From: Candidatus Saccharimonadota bacterium | GTDB lineage: Bacteria > Patescibacteriota > Saccharimonadia > Saccharimonadales > Saccharimonadaceae | Direction of reading: 5' to 3' | Assembly: GCA_030537075.1 (NCBI GenBank) | Contig: JAUNOS010000001.1 | Location: 30,079-94,078 of the forward strand | Length of the DNA: 64,000 nt | In this document: one piece after another, positions 40,845-53,061 of the stretch | Layout of the letters: every line of letters starts with the position of its first letter | Numbering within the stretch: the stretch's first letter is position 1 | Made by a program: the position numbers and the translations under genes | Notes under the pieces: generated by a model | The model's input: the letters and a program-made list of their open reading frames with translations, nothing else | Told to the model about the DNA's origin: nothing | The model's database searches: none

Positions 40845-41297
40845 TTAGAGATGCCTCCTAATGACGCCCTGGCCATCCTTTATATTAACCTCAAAACCAT
40901 ATTTTTCATACCAATATCGCAATTTATCAAAATGATCTGCATCAGTATTGCTTAGATTTCCACAAATTGTACGGCAACCAATTTCTTTCGATAGACTAAT
41001 TAAAAACTCCAACATCCTAGAGCCATAACCCCTATTCTCAATTTTCGAAACAATATCCCCTAAGAACATCTCTCGCTTATGTTTGTGATAGACGATATCC
41101 ATACGCACTATCCATCCCTTGTGCCTTCTGTGATACATATCGACACGCGCCACGCCTTCATCTATCAGTTCTTCAATTCTTTGACCAAGGCTAATAAACC
41201 ACTCTCCATCCGGCGATATCAAGACCATATCGCTAATCCTTTCATTGTACGCAAGCTGACTCAAAAACTCTTTTTTCTTTGATCTAAACAATACCAT
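40845..41297 (-). CDS. GNAT family N-acetyltransferase
   Basis: Acetyl-CoA-binding motif region (...RGYGSRMLEFLI...) and length of about 150 aa. Confidence 0.7.
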   Translation of the reverse strand: MVLFRSKKKEFLSQLAYNERISDMVLISPDGEWFISLGQRIEELIDEGVARVDMYHRRHKGWIVRMDIVYHKHKREMFLGDIVSKIENRGYGSRMLEFLISLSKEIGCRTICGNLSNTDADHFDKLRYWYEKYGFEVNIKDGQGVIRRHL

Positions 41298-41312: not shown

Positions 41313-44150
41313 CTACACACCATCTATGAATGTAGTCAAAAACTTCCGCAGTCCATCACGCAGGCGGTCTACAATACTATCAAGCTCTAGCAGTCTTGGC
41401 TGCTCAATTAGCAGATCATTCAGCTCATGGTCGCGCGGCTTGTGTCCGCCAGAAAGATAGCGTGCCACAACCTTCTCAGCTTTCGCCTTGTCAATTCCAT
41501 TCTCGCGGCACAGCTTTTCAAACTCAGCCCGACGCTCGGCATCAAGAAATTCATAAAACTCTCGCTCAACATCACCCGACTCTTCTATGTTCGGCAGATT
41601 ATTCTGCAGAAACCGCTCAATAAGCTCCCGTTTGCTACGCAATTCGCTATCCGACTTCATCAAGCCGTCAATCGTCTGTCTAATCTCCTTCTGCCTCGAT
41701 TCACTTGCACCGACCATCTGTGCCACCAAGCGTAAAATAAAGCCCACATTTATTTCATCACGTTTCACCAGCTCTAGTTCGAAATCAAGATCCGCTAAAA
41801 TTGAAACTTTTTCCGCACTGCCTGGCCTGACAGAGTCGTAAATATCAAGATATTTACTCTGGTATTCCTCAATCTCTTGCTCTTCAATGTCAATGTCGTC
41901 GAAGTGAAATTCCGTGAATGAAATCAAGATATTTTTTAATTTTAGCAGCTCGCGAAATGCCTTCACAAAGCCCTCTTTTTGCTCTTCGCTCAGCAAATTA
42001 TCAACCGCATCTGGCGTATTAGCAGCTTGACGCAATACCGCCACTTGCCGATTAAACATTTCGACATACTCATGATACGGCTGCATAAACACCCGCTCCT
42101 GCGCCTCTTTATTTGCGAACAACCTCAGCGCTTCATTGGTGTTTTTCCGCAGGTTGCGAAACGCCACGATATTACCATGTGATTTCGTTTCGTTAAGAAT
42201 GCGGTTAGTGCGAGAATACGCCTGGATAAGTCCATGGTATTGTAAGTTCTTATCAACATATAGCGTATTGAGCGTTTTACTATCAAAACCGGTCAAGAAC
42301 ATGTTAACCACCAGCAGGATATCAATCTCACGCATCTTAACACGATCGGCAATATTACGGTAGTACTCATAAAAACTCGCCGAGTCCTTGGTGGTGTAAT
42401 TCGTGCCAAACATTTGGTTATAGTCGGCAATGTAACTCTCTAGCCTATCGCGCGAATGCAGATTCACCTTGCCATCATCTGGCATAACGTCCTCGTCCAA
42501 AATACTATCAGCGTCTTTATCCTCTTCATTCGCCGTATAACTAAAAATGGTGGCGATTTTCAGATTGTGCTCACCCGCCTCTTTTTTACGCTTGAACATT
42601 TCGTAATATTTTGCCAACATATCCGTGCTAGAAACAGCAAATATCGCGGTAAACTCACGGTTTCTCGTCTTGGCGTTGTGATTTTTGATAATGAAATCAA
42701 CATTTTGCTCCACCCAGTTTTCAGATTCAAACACCTCACGCACATTGATGCCCGGCACCTTTTCATCCGCAAGATTACGACCGTTGTATTTCACACCACT
42801 ATAGTATTCAACCGAAAATCGCAGCACATTTTCATCATTAATCGCGTCAACGATGGTGTATTCGTGTAACCTATCACCAAACAAATCCTTGGTAGTGCGC
42901 TTACCAAGTTCATTGCCACTGGCGTTTTCTGCAAAAATTGGCGTCCCAGTAAAGCCAAACATCTGGTAGTTTGTGAAGTATTCGGTGATTCGCTTGTGCG
43001 TTTCACCAAACTGACTACGGTGACACTCGTCAAAAATAAAGATAACTTTCTTATCACGCTGTTCATCCATCTTTAAAGCATGTCGTTCACGACTAATTGC
43101 CGTGTTTAGCTTTTGGATGGTTGTGACGATCAGTTTTGTATCTGGGTCATTAAACTGCTTTACCAAGTTTGCCGTATTGGTCGTTGTATCAACACTACCC
43201 TCTTTGAAGCTATTGAACTCACGGATTGTTTGATTATCCAAATCCTTACGGTCAACGACAAATACCACCTTGTCAACCTGCGGATTACTAATTAAAAGCT
43301 GGCTCGCCTTAAATGATGTCAGCGTTTTACCACTGCCCGTCGTATGCCAAATATAGCCGCCATGTATGCTATTCTCCACCCTATCGGCAATCGCCTCTAC
43401 TGCATAAAACTGGTACGGCCGCAGCACAAGTAGCGTTTTATTTGTCGTTAGTACGGTATATTTGGCAATCATTTTGGCGATATGGCAGCGGTCCAAAAAC
43501 ACTTGGGCGAACTGCTCTAGCCGGCTAATCTTTTGATTATCCTTGTCTGCCCAAAAGCTCGTAAATTTAAATGACGCCTTTTTACTATTGCCATACCCAA
43601 CTGTATTGGCATAATACTTAGTGTTCACTCCATTTGAAATTACAAAAATCTGCACAAAATCAAACAAGCCATAGCCTGCACTATATGAATGGCGACGGTA
43701 GCGATTGACTTGATTAAACGCCTCTTTCAGCTCAATCCCCGCCCGCTTGAGCTCGATCTGTACCAGCGGCAAGCCATTGATTAAAATCGTCACATCGTAG
43801 CGATTTAGATACTCGCCATCATTACTAATCTGGTTCGCCACCTGAAATTCGTTTTGACACCACTTTTCAATCTGTAAAAATTCGATCAATTGCGTCGTGC
43901 CGTCATCCCGCCTCAAGGCAAACTTATCCCTGAGGGCAAGGGCTTTATCAAACACCGTACCTTTTGAGAGGTGATGAAGAATCTGCTTAAACTCAGCGTC
44001 AGAAAAGGCAGTGTTATTATGCTTTTCTAGTTGCACCTTAAGGTTAGCAACCAAATCAGCCTCGTCCTTTATCACTACCCGCTCGTAACCCTGACCAGCC
44101 AGCTGCTGCATCAAGGATTCTTCAAGCTGTGATTCGGATTGGGTAGTCAT
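41313..44150 (-). CDS. hsdR: type I restriction enzyme R subunit
   Basis: 945 aa. N-terminal nuclease region, DEAD-like helicase motifs (Walker A TGSGKT, DECH), and C-terminal HsdR domain. Confidence 0.93.
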   Translation of the reverse strand: MTTQSESQLEESLMQQLAGQGYERVVIKDEADLVANLKVQLEKHNNTAFSDAEFKQILHHLSKGTVFDKALALRDKFALRRDDGTTQLIEFLQIEKWCQNEFQVANQISNDGEYLNRYDVTILINGLPLVQIELKRAGIELKEAFNQVNRYRRHSYSAGYGLFDFVQIFVISNGVNTKYYANTVGYGNSKKASFKFTSFWADKDNQKISRLEQFAQVFLDRCHIAKMIAKYTVLTTNKTLLVLRPYQFYAVEAIADRVENSIHGGYIWHTTGSGKTLTSFKASQLLISNPQVDKVVFVVDRKDLDNQTIREFNSFKEGSVDTTTNTANLVKQFNDPDTKLIVTTIQKLNTAISRERHALKMDEQRDKKVIFIFDECHRSQFGETHKRITEYFTNYQMFGFTGTPIFAENASGNELGKRTTKDLFGDRLHEYTIVDAINDENVLRFSVEYYSGVKYNGRNLADEKVPGINVREVFESENWVEQNVDFIIKNHNAKTRNREFTAIFAVSSTDMLAKYYEMFKRKKEAGEHNLKIATIFSYTANEEDKDADSILDEDVMPDDGKVNLHSRDRLESYIADYNQMFGTNYTTKDSASFYEYYRNIADRVKMREIDILLVVNMFLTGFDSKTLNTLYVDKNLQYHGLIQAYSRTNRILNETKSHGNIVAFRNLRKNTNEALRLFANKEAQERVFMQPYHEYVEMFNRQVAVLRQAANTPDAVDNLLSEEQKEGFVKAFRELLKLKNILISFTEFHFDDIDIEEQEIEEYQSKYLDIYDSVRPGSAEKVSILADLDFELELVKRDEINVGFILRLVAQMVGASESRQKEIRQTIDGLMKSDSELRSKRELIERFLQNNLPNIEESGDVEREFYEFLDAERRAEFEKLCRENGIDKAKAEKVVARYLSGGHKPRDHELNDLLIEQPRLLELDSIVDRLRDGLRKFLTTFIDGV

Positions 44151-44236: not shown

Positions 44237-44674
44237 TCATGTGAAATTTTCCCAAATTTCATCAAATTCACTCTCAAGAATCGACTTAATATACTGGGTT
44301 TCGCCACAATTTTTCGGCAAATCATTCTTGCTATAAATTAGTAATATTTTCATCTGTCGTTTTGCGGCAGAATAGTACACCACACATCTATTGCCCGCAT
44401 CTTTGGCTGCAACCTTTGTCTGAGCAACCCTAAAGTCATACTTAAAGATCCATTGACCATCAGCATGCCACAACTCATCCACCTGCTGGGTGTGCTGCAA
44501 AGTATTTTCGGCAAACGAAATACGCGCAAGGTCTTGAAAGATAGACTCTTCGGTTACCTCCCACTGCTTGCCTCTGTATTTTTTCTGAAAACCTTTTAGA
44601 AAATGCCTACGAGCGTAATCTGTATACTCAACGCCTATCAAAACATTGCTAGTTGGTATACGGTTTGTAAACAT
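44237..44674 (-). CDS. putative toxin of a Panacea-associated toxin-antitoxin pair (145 aa, unclassified)
   Basis: Overlaps the 3' end of the upstream HTH-DUF4065 gene by 26 nt in another frame, with an internal AGGAAG RBS. No recognisable toxin fold by eye. Confidence 0.5.
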   Translation of the reverse strand: MFTNRIPTSNVLIGVEYTDYARRHFLKGFQKKYRGKQWEVTEESIFQDLARISFAENTLQHTQQVDELWHADGQWIFKYDFRVAQTKVAAKDAGNRCVVYYSAAKRQMKILLIYSKNDLPKNCGETQYIKSILESEFDEIWENFT

Positions 44675-45341
44675 GTTGCGGATCTTCCTGGGTGATTAGA
44701 CTATATGGAATATATTCGCCATCGGCGCAAGCCTGCCAAGGTCGCTGCGCGTGGGTGAAATTGACTATTTCCTCAGTTCTAGCACTCTCCCAGGTTTTAC
44801 AGATTTCATCAACGCGCTTTTTCTCATCAGCCGACAACAGATCTTCTTGTGGTTTTGTTGATGCACTTCGGCTAATCATAAACGCACCGCGATCAAGCAC
44901 CTCTATATTGATTTTTCCACCGTCATAAAGGGACTCTGTTAGCTCAAAGAAAGTGTCTGCAACCGGTCCGTACTGCCTGCGCACATACCTCATGCCGGTC
45001 ATAGGCTCCAGTGTGTCATAATACCAGCTAAAGTCAATTAGGTACAGGATCTTGGCTAGCTTAGTTTTAGGAACCCCCCCTTTAAAATGACTAAGAACAT
45101 ACAAATATAACTGTTCAAATTTCTCGTTATTCCGCGGCGTATCAATTAGCTCAGAAATAGAAACATCATAAATTTTAGCCAGTCTTTCTAGTAGCTCAAT
45201 ATTTGGCTTGGATTTTCCAGACTCAATATTTATATAGGTCGCTCTACTAATGCCCAGTTGCCCAGCAACGGCATCTTGCGTCAAATCTTTACTGCTCCTT
45301 AGATTCTCAAGGTTTTGTGCGACTGTGCTTGTGATACTCAT
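44649..45341 (-). CDS. HTH-XRE plus Panacea (DUF4065) domain antitoxin-like protein
   Basis: N-terminal XRE helix-turn-helix (LTQDAVAGQLGISRATYINIESGK). C-terminal region KLAKILYLIDFSWYY...YGPV is characteristic of DUF4065/Panacea. Confidence 0.75.
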   Translation of the reverse strand: MSITSTVAQNLENLRSSKDLTQDAVAGQLGISRATYINIESGKSKPNIELLERLAKIYDVSISELIDTPRNNEKFEQLYLYVLSHFKGGVPKTKLAKILYLIDFSWYYDTLEPMTGMRYVRRQYGPVADTFFELTESLYDGGKINIEVLDRGAFMISRSASTKPQEDLLSADEKKRVDEICKTWESARTEEIVNFTHAQRPWQACADGEYIPYSLITQEDPQHVYKPYTN

Positions 45342-45507
45342 TTTTCGCCCTTTCTTTGATATAAATATAGCATTTTAATTCATAAATGTCAAATATTTAT
45401 ACGTCTTTGTACTATTTATTGTATCAATGACCAAGCTTAAGCGCAATAAGTTTCTGACATTCTTGTAACTTGATGTAAATAATACTCATCATTTCCTTGA
45501 AAAATAC

Positions 45508-45536
45508 TTGACACCACCCTTGCGCTGTCATACAAT
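45508..45536 (+). promoter_or_regulatory. sigma70 promoter (TTGACA, 17-nt spacer, TACAAT) for the 257-aa gene
   Basis: Near-perfect consensus hexamers with 17-nt spacing. Gives an approximately 125-nt leader containing a GC hairpin (CGCCC-CGAAA-GGGCG, 45551-45565). Confidence 0.6.
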
Positions 45537-45668
45537 ATAAGCGAGAAAGACGCCCCGAAAGGGCGCCCTTCGTTAAAATATATAGTACCCACTAAAATTA
45601 TTTTAACTTTCTCATACTAATTGAAATTTAAACGAAGGTCAAGCGGAGGGACAGGCTGGAGTAACACG

Positions 45669-46394
45669 ATGGCAGAAAATAGGTCATCAGTCGTATCTGT
45701 GGGCGACTTAAATATCTCACAGAAGCATACCACAATAATTGTCGAACCAACCGCGTTCGCTGATGGCTTCGACAAAGACGCTTACGACACGGCGGAACTA
45801 TCCACTCTATTGTGGGTCGAAAATCCCGAAGAGAGGTGGGTCGAAATACCGCTACCGTTCGCAACGGAAAATTTCAGCGCGTCTGTTTCGGTAATATCTG
45901 CCGGACCCGACGAGTATAGGGATCGCATCTTTAGCGTTTCCCAGATTCGAAACGGTTTCGAAAAATATATCCCCTACTTGAGGCATCTGGGAACTTCAGA
46001 AGAGTTGCTCGGTAACAAGAAAGCACTGAGGAACATCCTAAAAGGTATGCGCGTAGCTATGGTCAAACTTCCGGCTGGCAACTTGGTTGTAAAAATCCAG
46101 TGTAGCCAGATTATCAAGAAGGACCCCGATGATATGAATGGCAAAACCTTCAGCTTCAAAGCCTTTGCGCCGCTTCCGAGCTTTTTCGTGAAAAACGCTG
46201 CGCCACTCAAACTGCACGTTATCTTCAAGGACGTAGACACAATTTCAAGAGAAATTGAAACACCAACTCTGTCCTATCCGTTCGGAGATATCCCTACGGT
46301 AGACAGCCAAGAGACAACGTTTGGCGGCGATAAATTATACTACTGGAAATGGCAAAATGACCCGGTGGTAGAGTTTAAGTACCGATACTTATAA
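45669..46394 (+). CDS. hypothetical protein (241 aa from the ATG at 45669), cassette cargo of unknown function
   Basis: GGAG RBS 8 nt upstream of the ATG at 45669. The ORF-track TTG start at 45621 is less likely. No recognisable domain. Strong dedicated promoter and terminator. Confidence 0.55.
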   Translation: MAENRSSVVSVGDLNISQKHTTIIVEPTAFADGFDKDAYDTAELSTLLWVENPEERWVEIPLPFATENFSASVSVISAGPDEYRDRIFSVSQIRNGFEKYIPYLRHLGTSEELLGNKKALRNILKGMRVAMVKLPAGNLVVKIQCSQIIKKDPDDMNGKTFSFKAFAPLPSFFVKNAAPLKLHVIFKDVDTISREIETPTLSYPFGDIPTVDSQETTFGGDKLYYWKWQNDPVVEFKYRYL

Positions 46395-46410: not shown

Positions 46411-46441
46411 AAGGGGCAGATTGACTGCCCCTTATTTTTTC
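46411..46441 (+). terminator. rho-independent terminator
   Basis: Stem AAGGGGCAG/CTGCCCCTT with a 5-nt loop, then T8. Confidence 0.8.
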
Positions 46442-46473: not shown

Positions 46474-46510
46474 TGTGAAAATTGATAGATTTTTGGTGTT
46501 TTTCACACCT
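46474..46510. repeat. ~37-bp element, copy B (direct repeat of 44174-44210), itself a hairpin
   Basis: TGTGAAAATTGATAGATTTTTGGTGTTTTTCACACCT. Its ends GGTGTGAAAA/TTTTCACACC form a perfect 10-bp inverted repeat. Confidence 0.7.
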
Positions 46511-46844
46511 CTTTACTTTTCTGTATTAAGCCCCGAATTCTGCTTATGTCGTCTCGCGATTGACTTATTTCCATATTCAGCTGATTGACCACATCATTAG
46601 CAATGTCATGAAATAGATCAGTTCCTTCATCTTCAAGTACGAAACTCACTTGATTATCGCTATTTATCGCAAAATCAAAAACTTTATCAAATAGGACTTT
46701 GATGTCATCTGTAGAATTATCCGACAAACTCACTTTAGAGCCTATCCCCTTAAACTCTAAGCATATGTTGTCGCTACTAGAAGCAGACCTATCTCCACTA
46801 ATCACTACATTTATTATATTTTTTCTATCTATCTCCATAAACAT
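46503..46844 (-). CDS. small acidic hypothetical protein (113 aa), translationally coupled to the PHP-ATPase
   Basis: Start ATG at 46844 overlaps the upstream stop (46825) by 20 nt. Asp/Glu/Ser-rich. Confidence 0.5.
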   Translation of the reverse strand: MFMEIDRKNIINVVISGDRSASSSDNICLEFKGIGSKVSLSDNSTDDIKVLFDKVFDFAINSDNQVSFVLEDEGTDLFHDIANDVVNQLNMEISQSRDDISRIRGLIQKSKEV

Positions 46845-48936
46845 TCTTTCTACTATTAAACATCTCTTCTCCTCCTTCTAAATGAGTAATTGCAACCTTG
46901 AACCAATCTTCCATTTTTCCTTTGCTTGCGCCTACTAATTCACCGGAATACATATTGCCACAATAGTATGTCTCATCGTCCGGATAATTGCAATATACAA
47001 CTTGGCTCGGTAGTGTATTGACTGCAATATTTGCATCATGCGTGGAAATCACTATTGTTTTTCCCAGCTCTCTTATATTCTTTATTTGCGGTAACAGGTG
47101 ATTAACTATATATTTATGACCAAGACCCCTCTCTATCTCGTCAAATAGGTAGCAATCGTATTCGGGATTCTCTAGCGCGGCACTAACAGATAGAATAGCC
47201 CTTTCTCCCTCCGAAGGCTTATAGTTATCATCACCTTTTATCCTGATTGATTCTCGTTTTTTAATTATATCTGTAATAAATTTATTAACATCAACCCCCT
47301 GTTCTGCTACTTTAAAATATTCATTAATGTTAGAAAATTTTGTTACATTAAAGTTCTCAATTTTCTTTACGACACCCCTGTTAAAAACGATTCGATTCTT
47401 ATCAAACACAGAATCTTTCCTATGTTTATCTCTCTGGCTAAGGCAAACGACCTCAACTCCTAGGGTCACATCACCCTTACCAGGCAAGTATCCTATTGGA
47501 AAGGCACTCTCAGACTGTATTTGTTTCATGTTTTCTACTAACCTACTGTTTGCTTCAAGCCTCTCAAGTCTGCTTGCAAATAGTTTTGAGAGTCCAATAT
47601 TTGTAGGCTTAGGTTTGCTGCCAGTACATTTTTTCAGCGAGTCTTTAATAGATACGATAAATCGCTCTGTGAATTTGTCAGAGTATTGTTTTGCTAAAGT
47701 ATCTTTAGCTTCAGACATAATATCCCGCTTCAACAGAGACAATTCTTTCATCAAACTATCTTTGTCTCTCGACGTAATCTTGGTAGTTTTATTTAATGCG
47801 ACTACTTTATCTACTTTATCCATATTTTCTTCGCACGCATCCATTATGGCCTGCATTTTATGTGAATTCAGGTCGGTAAAGCTACAATCTGCCTTTAAAA
47901 CTCTCTTCGCGCGCGCATTTGTTATTTTGCTCTGGTTAGCAGATTTATATTCTTTAATGAAATCGCGGACAGGAGACTCTCGATAATTCAAAATTTTTTG
48001 GATATCTTCTTTGATCTCCCGCAAGATATCTTCATTTATTTTTTCTCTCTCAGCGTAGCTATTGATTATTTGATCATAATATCTTTGATAATCCGAGCCT
48101 TTATGCAGAAAACATTTTTTACCTGATGCTGCAAACGCTGGCATAATATAATCTTCCATTAATATAGTTTTGCCAGATCCTTTTTCACCAAATACTATAT
48201 TTATATCGTCGTATATACTCACTATTCCCGCATCGGTTTTTACGTTAAGGCTACTTGAGCCATCAAGAGCATTTTTTACAAACATTTTTGGATCTTTTGC
48301 TAACTCGTAGAATTTACCAAAACTATCTATAGAGAACTTTACTTCTGGCGTCATAGACGCGCTATAGTTGTCCCAGTCTTTAACATCGCTACCAATCAAA
48401 CATAGTCTATTGATTCTATGATTAACTATACCCATAGAGAGAGTATTTGCCGTTTCCATAATTAACACATAGCCGGCAAGGCCTGATTCAAGATCACTCC
48501 TTTCATTCGGCCTAAATCCATTGGCCTTATCATAGAAATGAGGTATTATAATAATTTTATCTTTAGGTAATTGATTTGTGCGATTAATAAATTCTTTGTA
48601 TGAAAATGAAAATGTATTATAGTTTCGATTCGGGTCGCCATCATACGCACTACTGAACTCTTCAGTAATTCCCGGATCGCATACCACAATAACTTGTCTA
48701 TTTTGACCATCTTCTAATTTGATATCCAGTTCTATGCCTGGTATTACAACAATGCCTTCACCCAATTCAACTACCTTATTGTACTCATTCACATCGAACT
48801 TGTTGTGATTGGTGATCGAACAAAAGCCGACTCCGCAGTTTCTCATTTTTTCGATGTATGCTTCTGGGGTGATTTCACGTTTCTTTCCATCACCGGTCTT
48901 TAGGCACTGTGTATGTGTGTGCAAATCAATTCTCAT
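46825..48936 (-). CDS. PHP-domain phosphoesterase fused to an OLD/RecF-like ABC ATPase (Ppl-like antiphage architecture)
   Basis: N-terminus MRIDLHTHT (PHP HxH motif) with further His/Asp/Glu metal ligands. Central Walker A GEKGSGKT. C-terminal Walker B/D-loop YLFDEIERG and H-loop ISTHD. ATGA overlap with the hsdS stop. Confidence 0.72.
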   Translation of the reverse strand: MRIDLHTHTQCLKTGDGKKREITPEAYIEKMRNCGVGFCSITNHNKFDVNEYNKVVELGEGIVVIPGIELDIKLEDGQNRQVIVVCDPGITEEFSSAYDGDPNRNYNTFSFSYKEFINRTNQLPKDKIIIIPHFYDKANGFRPNERSDLESGLAGYVLIMETANTLSMGIVNHRINRLCLIGSDVKDWDNYSASMTPEVKFSIDSFGKFYELAKDPKMFVKNALDGSSSLNVKTDAGIVSIYDDINIVFGEKGSGKTILMEDYIMPAFAASGKKCFLHKGSDYQRYYDQIINSYAEREKINEDILREIKEDIQKILNYRESPVRDFIKEYKSANQSKITNARAKRVLKADCSFTDLNSHKMQAIMDACEENMDKVDKVVALNKTTKITSRDKDSLMKELSLLKRDIMSEAKDTLAKQYSDKFTERFIVSIKDSLKKCTGSKPKPTNIGLSKLFASRLERLEANSRLVENMKQIQSESAFPIGYLPGKGDVTLGVEVVCLSQRDKHRKDSVFDKNRIVFNRGVVKKIENFNVTKFSNINEYFKVAEQGVDVNKFITDIIKKRESIRIKGDDNYKPSEGERAILSVSAALENPEYDCYLFDEIERGLGHKYIVNHLLPQIKNIRELGKTIVISTHDANIAVNTLPSQVVYCNYPDDETYYCGNMYSGELVGASKGKMEDWFKVAITHLEGGEEMFNSRKNVYGDR

Positions 48937-50042
48937 ACAAACATCCTTTGCAATAGTGCTTTTTTGAACTTTTTTAGCTCCTCTAGTTTTTGAGTTTCGA
49001 GGGTGATTTTTTCGTCGATTTGGGAGAGGAAAGCGGCGATTTTCTGTTGCTCTTCAATTAGAGGCATTCCCAGTGTATAGATATTGCATATCACAGATGG
49101 GTGTGCCTTCGTGGTATAATCAAATACCTGTCTACCTTGCAGATATTGAAGTTGGCTCGCTAAAAACTTTGTATCTACTAGATTTTCATCAATAACTTTA
49201 ATAAACCCAGAAACATTAGTTATGGAGAATCTATGAGTTGGTCTATAGAAGAAATCACCCCCACCATCAATAGACCAAGTTATCATCTCGCTGTCAAACA
49301 TATAATTTCCGTACCTACCAAAAAGACCATTATTTTTCACAGAGGAAGAGTAGATGGGATACTCTCCGGGGTTGGCATCTACATCAGTGGCCGATATCAC
49401 CATGCCACGACCCATATTGATAAATCCTTTATCAACGATATCGCCTAGCTTTGTCGTCTCCCACTCTGGGAAGTCACTACCATCATCGCGCTTGAAGCGG
49501 AGAGTGCGGGTGAAGATTTTTTGGGTGAGGCCGCGTTTGTAGGCTTCGAGTTTTTCGACTTTGCGGCTAGTGAGCTCAATCCGCTCATCCACCGCCGTCA
49601 AAAACTCAGCGATTTTTTCTTGCTCCTGCTTGCTCGGGATGTTAACCTTAACTTTTTCTATCGTTGACTTAGATAAACTTGGTACACCTGTAGCTTCATT
49701 GTATCGTTGCCAATTGATATTGTTAAAAATTTCAAAGACAAACCTGGGACAAGAATCAACATAATCACGAGTGTAAAATAGTGTATCTACCGTCCAAAAT
49801 TTACCAGATAGAAATTGCGGTTTATCAATCGTGCCTTTGCGACCAATTGCAACACTTTCGCCTTCATATAGGTAATCGTCAACACTGAGCATATATCCGC
49901 CAGTGCCATACACTGGAATATCGCCTTCACCTAGATGCTTATAGTCACGACCGTTGCCAATAGTTAAGATGTCGCCGATCTTTTTCGTAGACCAGTCGTC
50001 GGTGAATTCAGGAAATCGCAAACTAGGCTTCATTACGTACAT
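48933..50042 (-). CDS. hsdS: type I restriction-modification specificity subunit
   Basis: 369 aa with two target-recognition-domain halves separated by conserved helical spacers. Positioned with hsdM and hsdR. Confidence 0.88.
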   Translation of the reverse strand: MYVMKPSLRFPEFTDDWSTKKIGDILTIGNGRDYKHLGEGDIPVYGTGGYMLSVDDYLYEGESVAIGRKGTIDKPQFLSGKFWTVDTLFYTRDYVDSCPRFVFEIFNNINWQRYNEATGVPSLSKSTIEKVKVNIPSKQEQEKIAEFLTAVDERIELTSRKVEKLEAYKRGLTQKIFTRTLRFKRDDGSDFPEWETTKLGDIVDKGFINMGRGMVISATDVDANPGEYPIYSSSVKNNGLFGRYGNYMFDSEMITWSIDGGGDFFYRPTHRFSITNVSGFIKVIDENLVDTKFLASQLQYLQGRQVFDYTTKAHPSVICNIYTLGMPLIEEQQKIAAFLSQIDEKITLETQKLEELKKFKKALLQRMFV

Positions 50043-50820
50043 CTCTATCTAAATACTTATTTTCGTTATTAAGCCACCGTTGCCTAAGGCGCTTACTTGC
50101 AGGCGTATCTCCCATCTGCCATTCATTTGCGTAAGGAACATACCCCAATGCGACCAAAAAATTAATGGCATCCGCATCATACTTAATACCCAACCTCAGC
50201 TTGACTTCACTTAGTCTCCAATACGGTTTTACATCAAGAAACTCACGAAGGTCACTAGGATAATTAATATTGCTTGCAGCCCACCGCTCAAACACTTTCT
50301 GTAAACGCTTATTTTTTATTTGATATATTTTTTTAGCTATTTTACGTAAGCCAAATCTCGCAACTGACATGATTCCAATCGTATCAGCAACAAATCCCCA
50401 CCAGTCAAAAAGTTCCACCCCAGACGCGCCCAAGCCTGAAGGTATGCTAATTGCGACACTTCTACCGTCACCAAATATAATACCAGCCCCTAAGGCTTCG
50501 TCGATTTCGCGTAATGTCCAGTCCTCATAAAAGCCCTCTAGATCACCTGTTTTTTTGACTGTATCATCGCCGTTTATTTTGTATGGTATTCCCCATGCGC
50601 TGTCGGTTTTTTTCTCCTGATCCGACCCTTTATCTATAGCTATACCGATTGGGGTTTGATTTGTAATTACCCCATCTTTCTCAAAGACTTCATTATATGT
50701 AGATATAATTACTGAACGCAGCGACTCATCAAGGTTAACTTCTTTTCTAATGACGATAGGTTCGTCGAGCATGTCTCCATACTGAGTCGTCCTAAATATT
50801 AGGTCAATTTTTTCCATCAT
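50023..50820 (-). CDS. hypothetical protein (265 aa) inserted between hsdM and hsdS
   Basis: ATGA overlap with the hsdM stop and 20-nt overlap with the hsdS start. Lower GC. No recognisable domain. Confidence 0.6.
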   Translation of the reverse strand: MMEKIDLIFRTTQYGDMLDEPIVIRKEVNLDESLRSVIISTYNEVFEKDGVITNQTPIGIAIDKGSDQEKKTDSAWGIPYKINGDDTVKKTGDLEGFYEDWTLREIDEALGAGIIFGDGRSVAISIPSGLGASGVELFDWWGFVADTIGIMSVARFGLRKIAKKIYQIKNKRLQKVFERWAASNINYPSDLREFLDVKPYWRLSEVKLRLGIKYDADAINFLVALGYVPYANEWQMGDTPASKRLRQRWLNNENKYLDRDVRNEA

Positions 50821-52367
50821 GGCGCCTCAATCCCCAATTCTTTGCAAAACTCAGCGATTTTCGCGTCAACTTCGGCGGATTTTTGGTCGATTTGTTTGAT
50901 TTCGGCGGTGACTTCGGCAAGGTCAATTTCCGGCTCAGGTTCAAATGTATCGACATAGCGCGGAATGTTAAGATTAAAGTCATTTTCGGCGATTTCGGCT
51001 AGGCTAGCGTTGTGACTGTATTTGTTGATTTCGGCGCGGGTGGCGTAGGTTTCGATAATTTTGTCGATATTTTTGGCGCTAAGGTAATTTTGATTCTTGC
51101 CTTTGGTGAATTCGCGGCTGGCGTCGATGAAGAGTACGCTTTCTTCTGGCGTGCGGCATTTTTTGAAGACTAAAATACAGGCAGGGATACTTGTTCCGTA
51201 AAATAGGTTTGCTGGCAAGCCAATAATCGCGTCAAGGTAATTACGCTGCTCAATAATAAAGCGACGAATCGCCCCTTCGGCTGCACCACGAAACAGTACG
51301 CCGTGCGGCATAATAACTGCCAGCGTGCCGCTATCATCCAGTTGGTGGATCATGTGGGTAATGAAGGCGTAGTCTGCCTTACTTTTTGGTGCTAGACGAC
51401 CATACGGTGAAAATCGATCATCACTCAGGTGAATTGGGTCAGCCGACCACTTGGCACCAAACGGCGGATTGGCCACAATCGCTTCAAACCGCTTATCATA
51501 ATGCTGCGGGCGCTCGAGTGTATCATCCTGCTTAATATCAAAATCTGCATAGTGCACATCGTGCAAAATCATATTCATGCGAGCCAAGTTGTAGGTAGTA
51601 TTATTTAGCTCTTGGCCATAAATCTTATCAATTTCCCCAATATGCTTTTTAACACGAAGTAGCAAAGATCCAGAACCGCAAGTTGGATCGTATGCATTGC
51701 GCAGACGATCCCGACCTTGCGTCACAATGCGAGCCAAGATTTCAGAAACATCCTGCGGCGTATAGAATTCGCCCGCCTTTTTGCCTGCACCAGCCGCAAA
51801 TTTGCCGATGAGGTATTCGTACGCATCACCCAGGATATCAATCTGCGAATCTCCAAGCTGAAAATCAATCCTACTAAGGTGACTTAGTACTTTGGCGATG
51901 AGCTTATTACGCTCGGCGACTGTTTTACCAAGTTTAATATTATGAAGGTCGAGATCTGAAAAGAGATTACCGAAGTCTTCTTCGCTATCGCTTCCCATGG
52001 TGGACTTTTCAATACCGTGCAAAATCCGCTCAAGGTCTTCAGTGAGTGTACTATTATTTGCCGCACCTTCGGCGATAACCGTAAATAAATCTTCGGGGGC
52101 AAGAAAGCAGCCCAGCTTGTCAATTGACTGCTTCTTTATCGCCTTTAGATACGCTTCTTTTTGCGGGTGGTCTACAAGTGCTTCGTAGGTCGCGTGCTCC
52201 GGCTCAAGCAAATGATTGGCGTAATCGGTAATCTTTTCTGAAAGATATTTATAAAAAATAAGACCAAGCATATAGTCACGGTAGTCATCCGCGTTCATCT
52301 TGCCATGAAATTCATCGGCTACCTTCCATAGTTGCGCATGCAAATTGCGGCGCTGGTCCTCGGTCAT
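50817..52367 (-). CDS. hsdM: type I restriction-modification DNA methyltransferase subunit (N6-adenine)
   Basis: N-terminal HsdM domain, SAM motif I (DPTCGSGSLL) and catalytic NPPF (ANPPFGAKW). GGGGAGAGG RBS. Confidence 0.95.
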   Translation of the reverse strand: MTEDQRRNLHAQLWKVADEFHGKMNADDYRDYMLGLIFYKYLSEKITDYANHLLEPEHATYEALVDHPQKEAYLKAIKKQSIDKLGCFLAPEDLFTVIAEGAANNSTLTEDLERILHGIEKSTMGSDSEEDFGNLFSDLDLHNIKLGKTVAERNKLIAKVLSHLSRIDFQLGDSQIDILGDAYEYLIGKFAAGAGKKAGEFYTPQDVSEILARIVTQGRDRLRNAYDPTCGSGSLLLRVKKHIGEIDKIYGQELNNTTYNLARMNMILHDVHYADFDIKQDDTLERPQHYDKRFEAIVANPPFGAKWSADPIHLSDDRFSPYGRLAPKSKADYAFITHMIHQLDDSGTLAVIMPHGVLFRGAAEGAIRRFIIEQRNYLDAIIGLPANLFYGTSIPACILVFKKCRTPEESVLFIDASREFTKGKNQNYLSAKNIDKIIETYATRAEINKYSHNASLAEIAENDFNLNIPRYVDTFEPEPEIDLAEVTAEIKQIDQKSAEVDAKIAEFCKELGIEAP

Positions 52368-52413: not shown

Positions 52414-53061
52414 TTATAGCATATTTGCGATACTTCGGTAATCTTGTTTGGTGATAATAAGATGGTCGATGAATGTAATGTCGAGCAATTCAGCAGCCTC
52501 TTTTAGTCGCCTTGTCACGACCACATCCGCCTCACTCGGCCGCAAACTCCCACTCGGATGATTGTGCGCTACGATGATACTGGCAGCCCGGTCGGCGATG
52601 GCGGGGGCGAAGACTTCGCGCGGATGCACCAGGCTGGCGGTGAGGGTGCCGATGGAAATAACATGTTTGTTGATCAGCCGATTTGCCCCATCCAGCGTCA
52701 AGCAGACGAAATATTCTTGCTGTTTGTCGCGAATATCTACCAATTGCTCAGCCGCCTTTTCGGGCGAGTCAATCACCGGTCGATCAGGCTCCAGCAAATG
52801 TTGTCGCGCCAGTTCAAAACTCGCCAAAATTACCGGAATCTTGGCCGCACCTAGACCCCCGACCTGCCGCAGATCATCATACGATACGTCCGCACCCTTC
52901 ACCTGCAGCACCTTTAGCACCCGCCGGGCGATCACACTTACATCCGCCTGCTTATTGCCACTACCGATAATCGCCATCAGTAGCTCCAGGTCAGACAACC
53001 TGGCCGCGCCATATAGCGCCAACTTCTCACGCGGGCGATCCATAGGGCGACGGTCGTGCAT
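52414..53061 (-). CDS. radC: RadC-family JAB/MPN domain protein
   Basis: JAMM motif HNHPSGSLRPSEADVVVT with a helix-hairpin-helix-like N-terminus. Confidence 0.88.
   Translation of the reverse strand: MHDRRPMDRPREKLALYGAARLSDLELLMAIIGSGNKQADVSVIARRVLKVLQVKGADVSYDDLRQVGGLGAAKIPVILASFELARQHLLEPDRPVIDSPEKAAEQLVDIRDKQQEYFVCLTLDGANRLINKHVISIGTLTASLVHPREVFAPAIADRAASIIVAHNHPSGSLRPSEADVVVTRRLKEAAELLDITFIDHLIITKQDYRSIANML

Follow-up and report, generated by a model that had tools for sequence, protein, structure and literature searches.

A Ppl-like PHP-ATPase gene with an overlapping gene for a small acidic partner: candidate antiphage cargo in a Type I restriction operon of Candidatus Saccharibacteria

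The stretch of DNA analysed here (the window) comprises 64,000 nucleotides (nt) of contig JAUNOS010000001.1 from a Candidatus Saccharimonadota bacterium, and its minus strand carries, within the operon of a Type I restriction-modification system, the pair of overlapping genes that is the subject of this study: one for a 703-amino-acid (aa) protein in which a PHP phosphoesterase domain precedes an ABC ATPase, the other for a small acidic protein. Both open reading frames (ORFs) lie where the original prediction, made from the sequence alone, had placed them. They form the end of a single head-to-tail chain of overlapping ORFs that runs through hsdM, orf265, hsdS, the 703-aa gene and the small gene (Table 1): hsdS ends in ...GTATGA, the ATG of which is the start of the 703-aa ORF, and an AAGGA Shine-Dalgarno-like sequence lies 7 nt 5' of that start. 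The small ORF overlaps the stop of the large gene by 20 nt when read from its first ATG, as had been predicted along with the 4-nt overlap at hsdS, and by 14 nt when read from the second. The second ATG, at 46838, is the more likely start, giving a protein of 111 aa, because it is aligned with the conserved 'ME' start of homologues, because it is better spaced from a purine-rich GAAAGA stretch that may be a ribosome-binding site, and because gene callers picked the same start in a related strain (L059, 91% identity). That strain has the same 4-nt overlap between hsdS and the large gene and the same layout, which continues there with DUF8371 and then Cas9. We take the overlap of large-gene stop and small-gene start as translational coupling. 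The operon lies in an island, from 41 to 54 kb, of low guanine-plus-cytosine (GC) content (approximately 36-46%, compared with approximately 55% in the flanks), and the hsdR gene of the same system is separated from the pair by a convergent ORF without a family and by a helix-turn-helix (HTH)-Panacea gene that overlaps the ORF downstream of it.

In the large protein, a PHP nuclease/phosphoesterase is joined to an ABC ATPase of the SMC/AriA type, which carries a helical insert. The database record of the identical protein describes a hypothetical protein from a Candidatus Saccharibacteria metagenome-assembled genome (MAG), and more than 680 homologues of about 700-720 aa were found, many with precomputed matches to PF02811, PF13304 or PF02463. 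The motifs quoted in the original prediction, MRIDLHTHT (aa 1-9), GEKGSGKT (250-257), YLFDEIERG (596-604) and ISTHD (630-634), are all present and all fall on invariant columns of an alignment of 24 family sequences. In the same alignment, D4, H6, H8, N43, H44, E69, H133 and D184 of the PHP domain are invariant and would serve as metal ligands; the invariant ATPase residues are GEKGSGKT, S575/G577/E578, D599/E600 and T632/H633, and the protein ends in a conserved tail, LEGGxEMFxxRxxxY. An AlphaFold2 model built with the family alignment has a mean predicted local distance difference test score (pLDDT) of 85.6. In Foldseek searches of the PDB with this model, the PHP part matched the Pol III alpha PHP domain and the PHP phosphoesterase 3e0f (E of about 1e-4, probability 1.00), and the PHP region also matched the N terminus of the NCBIfam TrlF model (E=1.3e-16); as a single query against PDB sequences, the PHP domain returned noise only. 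The ATPase part matched the heads of SMC2, SMC3, Smc and RecN (E down to 4.8e-6), as well as AriA of the PARIS system, and AriA came first when the family profile was searched against PDB sequences (5.8e-7, aa 232-641). PADLOC AriA models matched the window protein at E=2e-6 to 1e-5, a likeness at superfamily level only. The label 'OLD/RecF-like' in the original prediction is therefore imprecise: the protein is not OLD-like, because it has no TOPRIM domain, and its nearest relatives are AriA and the SMC/RecN heads. The insert at aa 301-472 and the segment following it are basic (isoelectric point [pI] 9.0-9.4) in an otherwise acidic protein and offer a plausible docking or DNA-binding surface. 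The ratio of nonsynonymous to synonymous substitution rates (dN/dS) of the large gene relative to the 91%-related strain is 0.10, indicating purifying selection.

A metal-dependent phosphoesterase joined to a coiled-coil ABC ATPase whose fold resembles SMC/RecN heads could also belong to a housekeeping DNA-repair complex, such as SbcCD or Mre11-Rad50. The likeness to these complexes is one of design, a phosphoesterase nuclease coupled to a coiled-coil ABC ATPase, without homology. The genomic setting argues against such a role: at 36-46% GC, the island that holds the genes stands out from a genome of 55% GC, the distribution of the pair is patchy over five phyla and includes plasmids and insertion hotspots, pseudogenised copies exist, and the genes belong to no conserved repair operon. 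We consider a repair function very unlikely.

The small ORF is a real and obligate partner of the large protein. A locus scan with one genome per species yielded 33 loci with relatives of the large protein; the 31 of these with at least 34% large-protein identity are termed close, and four loci at 26-29% are termed distant. A homologue of the small protein lies directly 3' of the large gene and overlaps its stop in every one of the 31 close loci, and in all four distant loci (two MAGs and one plasmid each from Clostridium and Photobacterium) the stop is likewise overlapped by an ORF of approximately 100 aa, which the small-protein hidden Markov model (HMM) matches with E values of 2e-8 to 3.5e-5 (hhalign, 90%). 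The pair spans Saccharibacteria, Bacillota, Bacteroidota, Fusobacteriota and Gammaproteobacteria, and an overlap of 11-17 nt is kept in an S. aureus plasmid and in Streptococcus, Clostridium, Photobacterium and Leptotrichia-type contigs. Conversely, a reverse look-up from two small proteins found a PHP-ATPase of 702-723 aa just upstream, with an 11-nt overlap, at every place shown. An exhaustive HMMER search of 1.84 billion representatives gave 133 small-protein clusters of 50-147 aa, all stand-alone, with no fusion to another domain among them. In a word-indexed database, where an alignment query was needed, a single small-protein query returned one relative. The dN/dS of the small gene, 0.13 relative to the 91%-related strain, again indicates purifying selection.

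The PHP-plus-ATPase architecture had been named in the original prediction as that of the single-gene antiphage system Ppl, and the literature confirms this (PMC11482910, PMC12904381): Ppl is encoded by one gene, its product having ATPase and PHP domains (PMC11482910), and, according to a 2026 review, E. coli Ppl is a 3'-5' single-stranded DNA exonuclease that is inhibited by nucleoside triphosphates on both domains and released by nucleotide depletion and free 3'-OH ends (PMC12904381). The membership that the original prediction proposed did not hold. The PADLOC Ppl model (PDLC02208) gave no match to the window protein even at E<=10, and the best NCBIfam match, 'TrlF family AAA-like ATPase' (NF045780), scored 60.6 bits against a cutoff of 350 and covered the PHP end only. 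As a positive control, the annotated TrlF of Listeria plasmid pLIS21 matched PADLOC Ppl at 2.2e-41, so that TrlF and Ppl are the same family. BLASTP aligned the window protein with the Listeria TrlF colinearly at both ends (residues 1-261, E=1e-10; 577-700, E=2e-7), covering ITNHN, GSDxK and the C-terminal EGGxExFxxR..Y tail, and hhalign of the family profile with the TrlF protein extended over the full length (99.2% probability, E=2.6e-19, aa 2-707 versus 14-864). The window protein is a remote full-length homologue of Ppl/TrlF that lies outside the curated family. The two share the order of PHP and ABC/SMC-like ATPase, colinear over the whole length, the unusual PHP motif variants ITNHN and GSDxK, the C-terminal tail and a location on mobile elements. 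They differ in that identity at the two ends is only approximately 25%, in that the window protein is approximately 160 residues shorter (703 versus 867-944 aa), with most of the difference falling after Walker A and within the helical insert, and in that the window family is always accompanied by an overlapping gene whose acidic product has about 100-120 aa, whereas a search of all six frames at four Ppl/TrlF loci (Listeria, Serratia, Pseudomonas and Sulfitobacter) found no ORF for the small partner.

These comparisons bear on the alternative that the pair is nothing more than single-gene Ppl of the ordinary kind, with the small ORF a chance or nonfunctional frame. The shared architecture and the full-length remote homology are what such a member would have; set against them are the failed Ppl match, a TrlF score far under the cutoff, and a small ORF that is conserved across phyla with invariant residues, evolves at a dN/dS of 0.13 and is absent from the Ppl/TrlF loci. 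Because of the conservation of the small ORF, we regard this alternative as refuted. On a Pseudomonas avellanae plasmid, the 3' end of the Ppl/TrlF gene is overlapped by a gene for a 385-aa 'RNA-binding domain-containing protein' (L062:6083-7240), possibly a different Ppl/TrlF partner and one unrelated to the small acidic family. Phage genomes yielded no member of the window family; just two records matched, both from unannotated Listeria phages, and the match was limited to the PHP end (aa 1-261, 25% identity), exactly as with the TrlF genes of Listeria plasmids.

A catalogued relative is the PADLOC candidate PDC-M49 (PDLC04678, PDLC04680), a sister clade at 26-29% identity with equal length and architecture and an overlapping small partner. 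Proteins of that clade match PDC-M49A over their full length (105-127 bits, 1e-31 to 1e-37), whereas the window protein matches PDLC04678 partially and in fragments (38.3 bits, E=1.3e-10) and has no match to PDLC04680. The small partner is matched by no PADLOC model. In the literature searched on TrlF, PplA, PDC-M49 and PHP-ABC conflict systems, no description of a PHP-ATPase system with two genes came to light. The two-component variant of Ppl-like PHP-ATPase nucleases is new, only its large subunit having been partly anticipated, by the PADLOC candidate.

The small protein has no Pfam, PADLOC or NCBIfam family. Across its family, the mean net charge is -14.5 and the mean pI 4.27, with Asp plus Glu making up 24% of residues. 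Its AlphaFold2 model (pLDDT 78) has the topology b-b-b-a-b-a-a, for which no significant match was found among solved structures, apart from a weak RNase H-like topology; the predicted fold is like no known DNA mimic and unlike TOPRIM, and no match to an AriB-type (DUF4435) partner was found in PADLOC or Pfam. The invariant residues are core hydrophobics and a polar stripe on one helix (D82, N88, E90 and S94), and the first strand has no conserved acid. We read the modelled protein as a putative non-catalytic binding module. That the small protein arose as a domain detached from Ppl/TrlF or from the large subunit was rejected, because hhalign of its profile against TrlF and against the large family gave a probability of 0.7-1%.

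The pair is mobile, with a tendency to be located near restriction genes. In a survey of neighbours at 28 non-redundant loci, the commonest families were Type I R and S subunits and ResIII, and restriction genes were adjacent in roughly a third of loci. The order in other Saccharibacteria is radC-hsdM-RhuM-[pair]-hsdS-(AAA_13)-hsdR; in Leptotrichia-type contigs, the pair is flanked by SNF2-DUF4391-N6_N4 methyltransferase genes and a ResIII/RE_endonuc gene; further Type I neighbours occur in Lactococcus, where a complete gene set is adjacent, and in Salibacterium, [Eubacterium] yurii and a Bacillota MAG; and the Photobacterium pair, on a plasmid, adjoins a Type II system (an Eco57I-type methylase and a BsuBI/PstI endonuclease). 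A Type I system as an obligate neighbour was not borne out: the pair occurs without one on the S. aureus enterotoxin-D plasmid, in an IS257-flanked segment near Fst toxin-antitoxin loci, and in mitis-group streptococci, where it is inserted between purK and purB. The coupling to hsdS that the original prediction emphasised is therefore present but not essential, and nesting among restriction-modification genes is what recurs.

Because of the similarity to AriA and the repeated nesting in restriction operons, it is attractive to view the pair as a guard of, or accessory to, the restriction system, one that is set off once anti-restriction proteins of a phage have put the enzyme out of action, as in PrrC/EcoprrI or PARIS/Ocr, or that processes the ends made by HsdR. 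The translational chain with hsdM-orf265-hsdS in the window and the related strain points this way, as do the position of the pair between modification and restriction genes in other Saccharibacteria and Leptotrichia-type contigs, its place beside the full Type I set in Lactococcus, and AriA as the closest solved relative of the ATPase by sequence. PARIS reacts to an acidic, Ocr-like DNA mimic, and both systems follow a two-component, ATPase-plus-nuclease design; here, however, the nuclease is a PHP domain fused in cis rather than a separate TOPRIM protein, and the second gene encodes a small acidic protein without similarity to AriB, so that an AriB-like TOPRIM partner is absent. Cargo linked to restriction genes is familiar from PrrC/EcoprrI, RloC and the 'rlo' genes, RhuM, Fic and Abi-type genes inside hsd operons. 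The module resembles these in being nested and co-oriented in a Type I operon, and RhuM, Fic and AAA_13 occupy the slot in relatives, but it has no sequence relationship to PrrC or RloC and is found also away from any restriction system. Many loci, among them the S. aureus plasmid, the streptococcal pur hotspot and several in Bacillales, have no restriction-modification genes within 8 kb, so that the pair cannot depend on a specific restriction partner, and restriction operons are general landing pads for unrelated cargo. The free 3'-OH ends that Ppl reportedly needs (PMC12904381) are a further point in favour of a role at restriction-made ends. Overall, we give a guard or accessory function a low probability.

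A toxin-antitoxin or nuclease-immunity addiction pair, in which the acidic protein, like barstar or the colicin immunity proteins, would be the antitoxin to a toxic PHP-ATPase nuclease, and which would serve primarily to stabilise plasmids and islands rather than to sense phages, is suggested by the gene order, with the small acidic protein encoded directly downstream in an overlapping frame and the overlap of 11-20 nt conserved across phyla. The plasmid copies near Fst toxin-antitoxin loci and IS257, those on the Clostridium and Photobacterium plasmids, the patchy and mobile distribution and the frequency of broken copies also fit this proposal. Canonical type II antitoxins, however, are usually encoded upstream of the toxin and have a DNA-binding domain, whereas the partner neither precedes the large gene nor carries such a domain; a validated defence protein that needs no antitoxin is among the homologues of the large protein; and the contexts are dominated by restriction systems, not plasmid-maintenance genes. 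Addiction alone is therefore an unlikely explanation, and, abortive-infection systems often acting as toxin-antitoxin pairs, addiction and defence roles are compatible.

Some further observations concern the mobility and integrity of the pair. The purK-purB gap is a variable insertion site that holds the pair with a PDDEXK_4 nuclease gene and a 77-aa ORF in one form (L040:6449-7981) and the pair with an Asp/Glu racemase-like gene and an Mrr_cat nuclease gene in another (L054:7555-8307). Desemzia sp. RIT 804 (NZ_JAFEMV010000001.1; L017, L018 and L030) has the pair in triplicate on a single contig, the identical copies recurring at intervals of exactly 73,123 bp; this represents either a tandem triplication or the assembly, as a concatemer, of a circular element of 73 kb. 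Some MAGs (L008, L029 and L031) have the large gene broken up into two or three ORFs, and several S. aureus and S. epidermidis plasmids (H9-H14) have only C-terminal remnants of it (aa 260-701 or 559-701); these copies could be products of decay or assembly errors.

The remaining features of the locus are listed in Table 1. orf265, which overlaps hsdM by 4 nt and hsdS by 20 nt, has no match in Pfam, PADLOC or NCBIfam, and its slot is taken up by a distinct ORF of 209 aa in the strain related at 91% and, in other Saccharibacteria, by RhuM; because the contents differ among relatives, the position looks like a second variable cargo site. The HTH gene with a SocA/Panacea antitoxin domain and the 145-aa ORF that it overlaps are both kept in the related strain (dN/dS, 0.13 and 0.04) and are probably a Panacea-type toxin-antitoxin pair with an unclassified toxin. 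The 257-aa ORF on the opposite strand converges on the small gene, and the hairpin between the two stops is possibly a two-way terminator; in a promoter and terminator scan, terminator-like sites were no more frequent than expected by chance. The far end of the island varies between close strains, since hsdR is followed 3' by a weakly GNAT-like ORF in the window and by a DUF8371 gene and then a Cas9 gene in the related strain (L059:15593-20336).

Table 1. Positions of the gene pair, its domains and motifs, and surrounding features in the window
Feature	Position	Strand	Remarks
Large subunit	46825..48936	minus	ORF, 703 aa; PHP + SMC/AriA-like ABC ATPase
Small acidic partner	46503..46838	minus	111 aa; 113 aa (46503..46844) if from ATG at 46844
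Large-gene stop/small-gene start overlap	46825..46844	minus	14 or 20 nt
hsdS stop/large-gene start overlap	48933..48936	minus	ATGA, 4 nt
PHP domain	48262..48936	minus	aa 1-225; IDLHTHT, ITNHN, GIELD, PHF, GSDVK
ABC ATPase	46828..48252	minus	aa 229-703
Walker A	48166-48189	minus	GEKGSGKT
Basic helical insert	47521-48036	minus	aa 301-472
Signature-like motif	47197-47217	minus	PSEGERA
Walker B	47131-47154	minus	
H-loop	47035-47049	minus	ISTHD
Operon context upstream of the pair	48933..52367	minus	hsdM-orf265-hsdS
radC	52414-53061	minus	
hsdM	50817-52367	minus	Pfam and PADLOC assignment
orf265	50023-50820	minus	function unassigned
hsdS	48933-50042	minus	Pfam and PADLOC assignment
hsdR	41313..44150	minus	same Type I system; PADLOC REase_I, 1055.9 bits; Pfam HSDR_N + EcoR124_C
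Hairpin	~46418-46436		GGGGCAG-tcaat-CTGCCCC; between stops of 257-aa ORF and small gene
257-aa ORF	45621-46394	plus	TTG start; no family match
Promoter-like site	45508-45536	plus	strong, 11/12 matches; divergent from next
Promoter-like site	45364-45392	minus	strong, 11/12 matches
HTH + SocA/Panacea gene	44649-45341	minus	230 aa
145-aa ORF	44237-44674	minus	no family; overlapped by Panacea gene
GNAT-like ORF	40845-41297	minus	150 aa; weak likeness; 3' of hsdR

We suggest, with a probability of about 0.6, that the pair is a self-contained two-gene Ppl-like antiphage module that is carried as cargo in the Type I operon of this Candidatus Saccharibacteria genome; the original prediction's single-gene Ppl assignment does not apply to a family that always carries the partner gene. 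We infer the antiphage function, the nuclease substrate, the binding of the two proteins to each other and the direction in which regulation runs as follows. By homology with Ppl, the large protein would be a nucleotide-gated PHP nuclease that acts on phage DNA, probably at DNA ends, with the ATPase head as its switch. The small protein, produced from the overlapping frame, would regulate the large one as a stoichiometric subunit; most likely it would act as an inhibitor or gate, docked on the basic insert or on the DNA-binding surface, and would hold the nuclease silent until infection relieves the inhibition. An inhibitor or DNA-mimic role is plausible, fitting the conserved acidity of the partner, its obligate linkage and the basic insert of the large protein, and the charge complementarity between acidic partner and basic insert is suggestive of binding. 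Working analogies are provided by barnase-barstar and colicin DNase-Im, which, like the pair, have the gene for a small acidic protein just 3' of the nuclease gene, and by SbcCD/Mre11-Rad50; the nuclease-immunity pairs share no homology with the module.

A number of observations weigh against this reading. The window sequence alone stays below the Pfam thresholds for both PHP (21.5 bits, E=3.3e-4; cutoff, 26.4) and AAA_21 (25.2 bits, E=2e-5; cutoff, 27), so that the HMM support for the two domains is weak for the single sequence, although the evidence is solid at the level of family and structure. The variants within the PHP motifs (TDH to TNH and DxH to DxK) might conceivably signify that catalysis is altered or lost, a concern tempered by the presence of ITNHN and GSDxK in the Listeria TrlF, a member of the Ppl family, and by the description of E. 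coli Ppl as an active exonuclease. The partner had been predicted to be highly acidic, and acidity is indeed a conserved family trait, but the description overstates the window copy, which, with a pI of 4.39 and a net charge of -9, is among the least acidic of the close family. A defence context is apparent in approximately one-third of loci only, the others being uninformative. Lastly, a literature search on PDC-M49 found no paper that mentions the candidate, and PDC-M49A is itself only a candidate.

A more specific proposal unites inhibition with restriction. The small protein may be a self-encoded DNA mimic or immunity subunit that plugs the DNA-binding surface or basic insert of a Ppl-like PHP exonuclease and the module a restriction guard, in which phage anti-restriction or DNA-binding proteins, or nucleotide depletion, would displace the plug and unleash the nuclease just as the restriction enzyme fails. 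We hold this to be a long shot at present. If true, it would represent a new gating principle for the Ppl superfamily and would explain the frequent position of the pair between modification and restriction genes.

The operon that carries the two-gene module has accommodated other cargo in related organisms. Between radC-hsdM and hsdR, related Saccharibacteria carry Schlafen/AlbA_2-HATPase_c_4, Fic/DOC, RhuM and AAA_13 genes (L003:3849-7938, L004:11535-12638), with Fic and Schlafen/AlbA_2 genes together in this slot in one genome; AAA_13 is the Pfam ATPase family that contains PrrC/RloC. The radC-hsdM...hsdR operon is a hotspot for defence-type genes, and our data document it as a variable defence-cargo slot of Saccharibacteria.

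In summary, Ppl has been catalogued and studied as a single gene, and the sister lineage described here always has an acidic partner that lacks a family assignment. This lineage comprises more than 680 large subunits in five phyla; oral streptococci, staphylococcal and listerial elements and the ultrasmall Saccharibacteria are all represented in it. Should the partner prove to gate the nuclease, the pair would offer a simple system in which to study the silencing and triggering of nucleases coupled to SMC/ABC ATPases, and the partner would supply the missing second component of the PADLOC PDC-M49 candidate.

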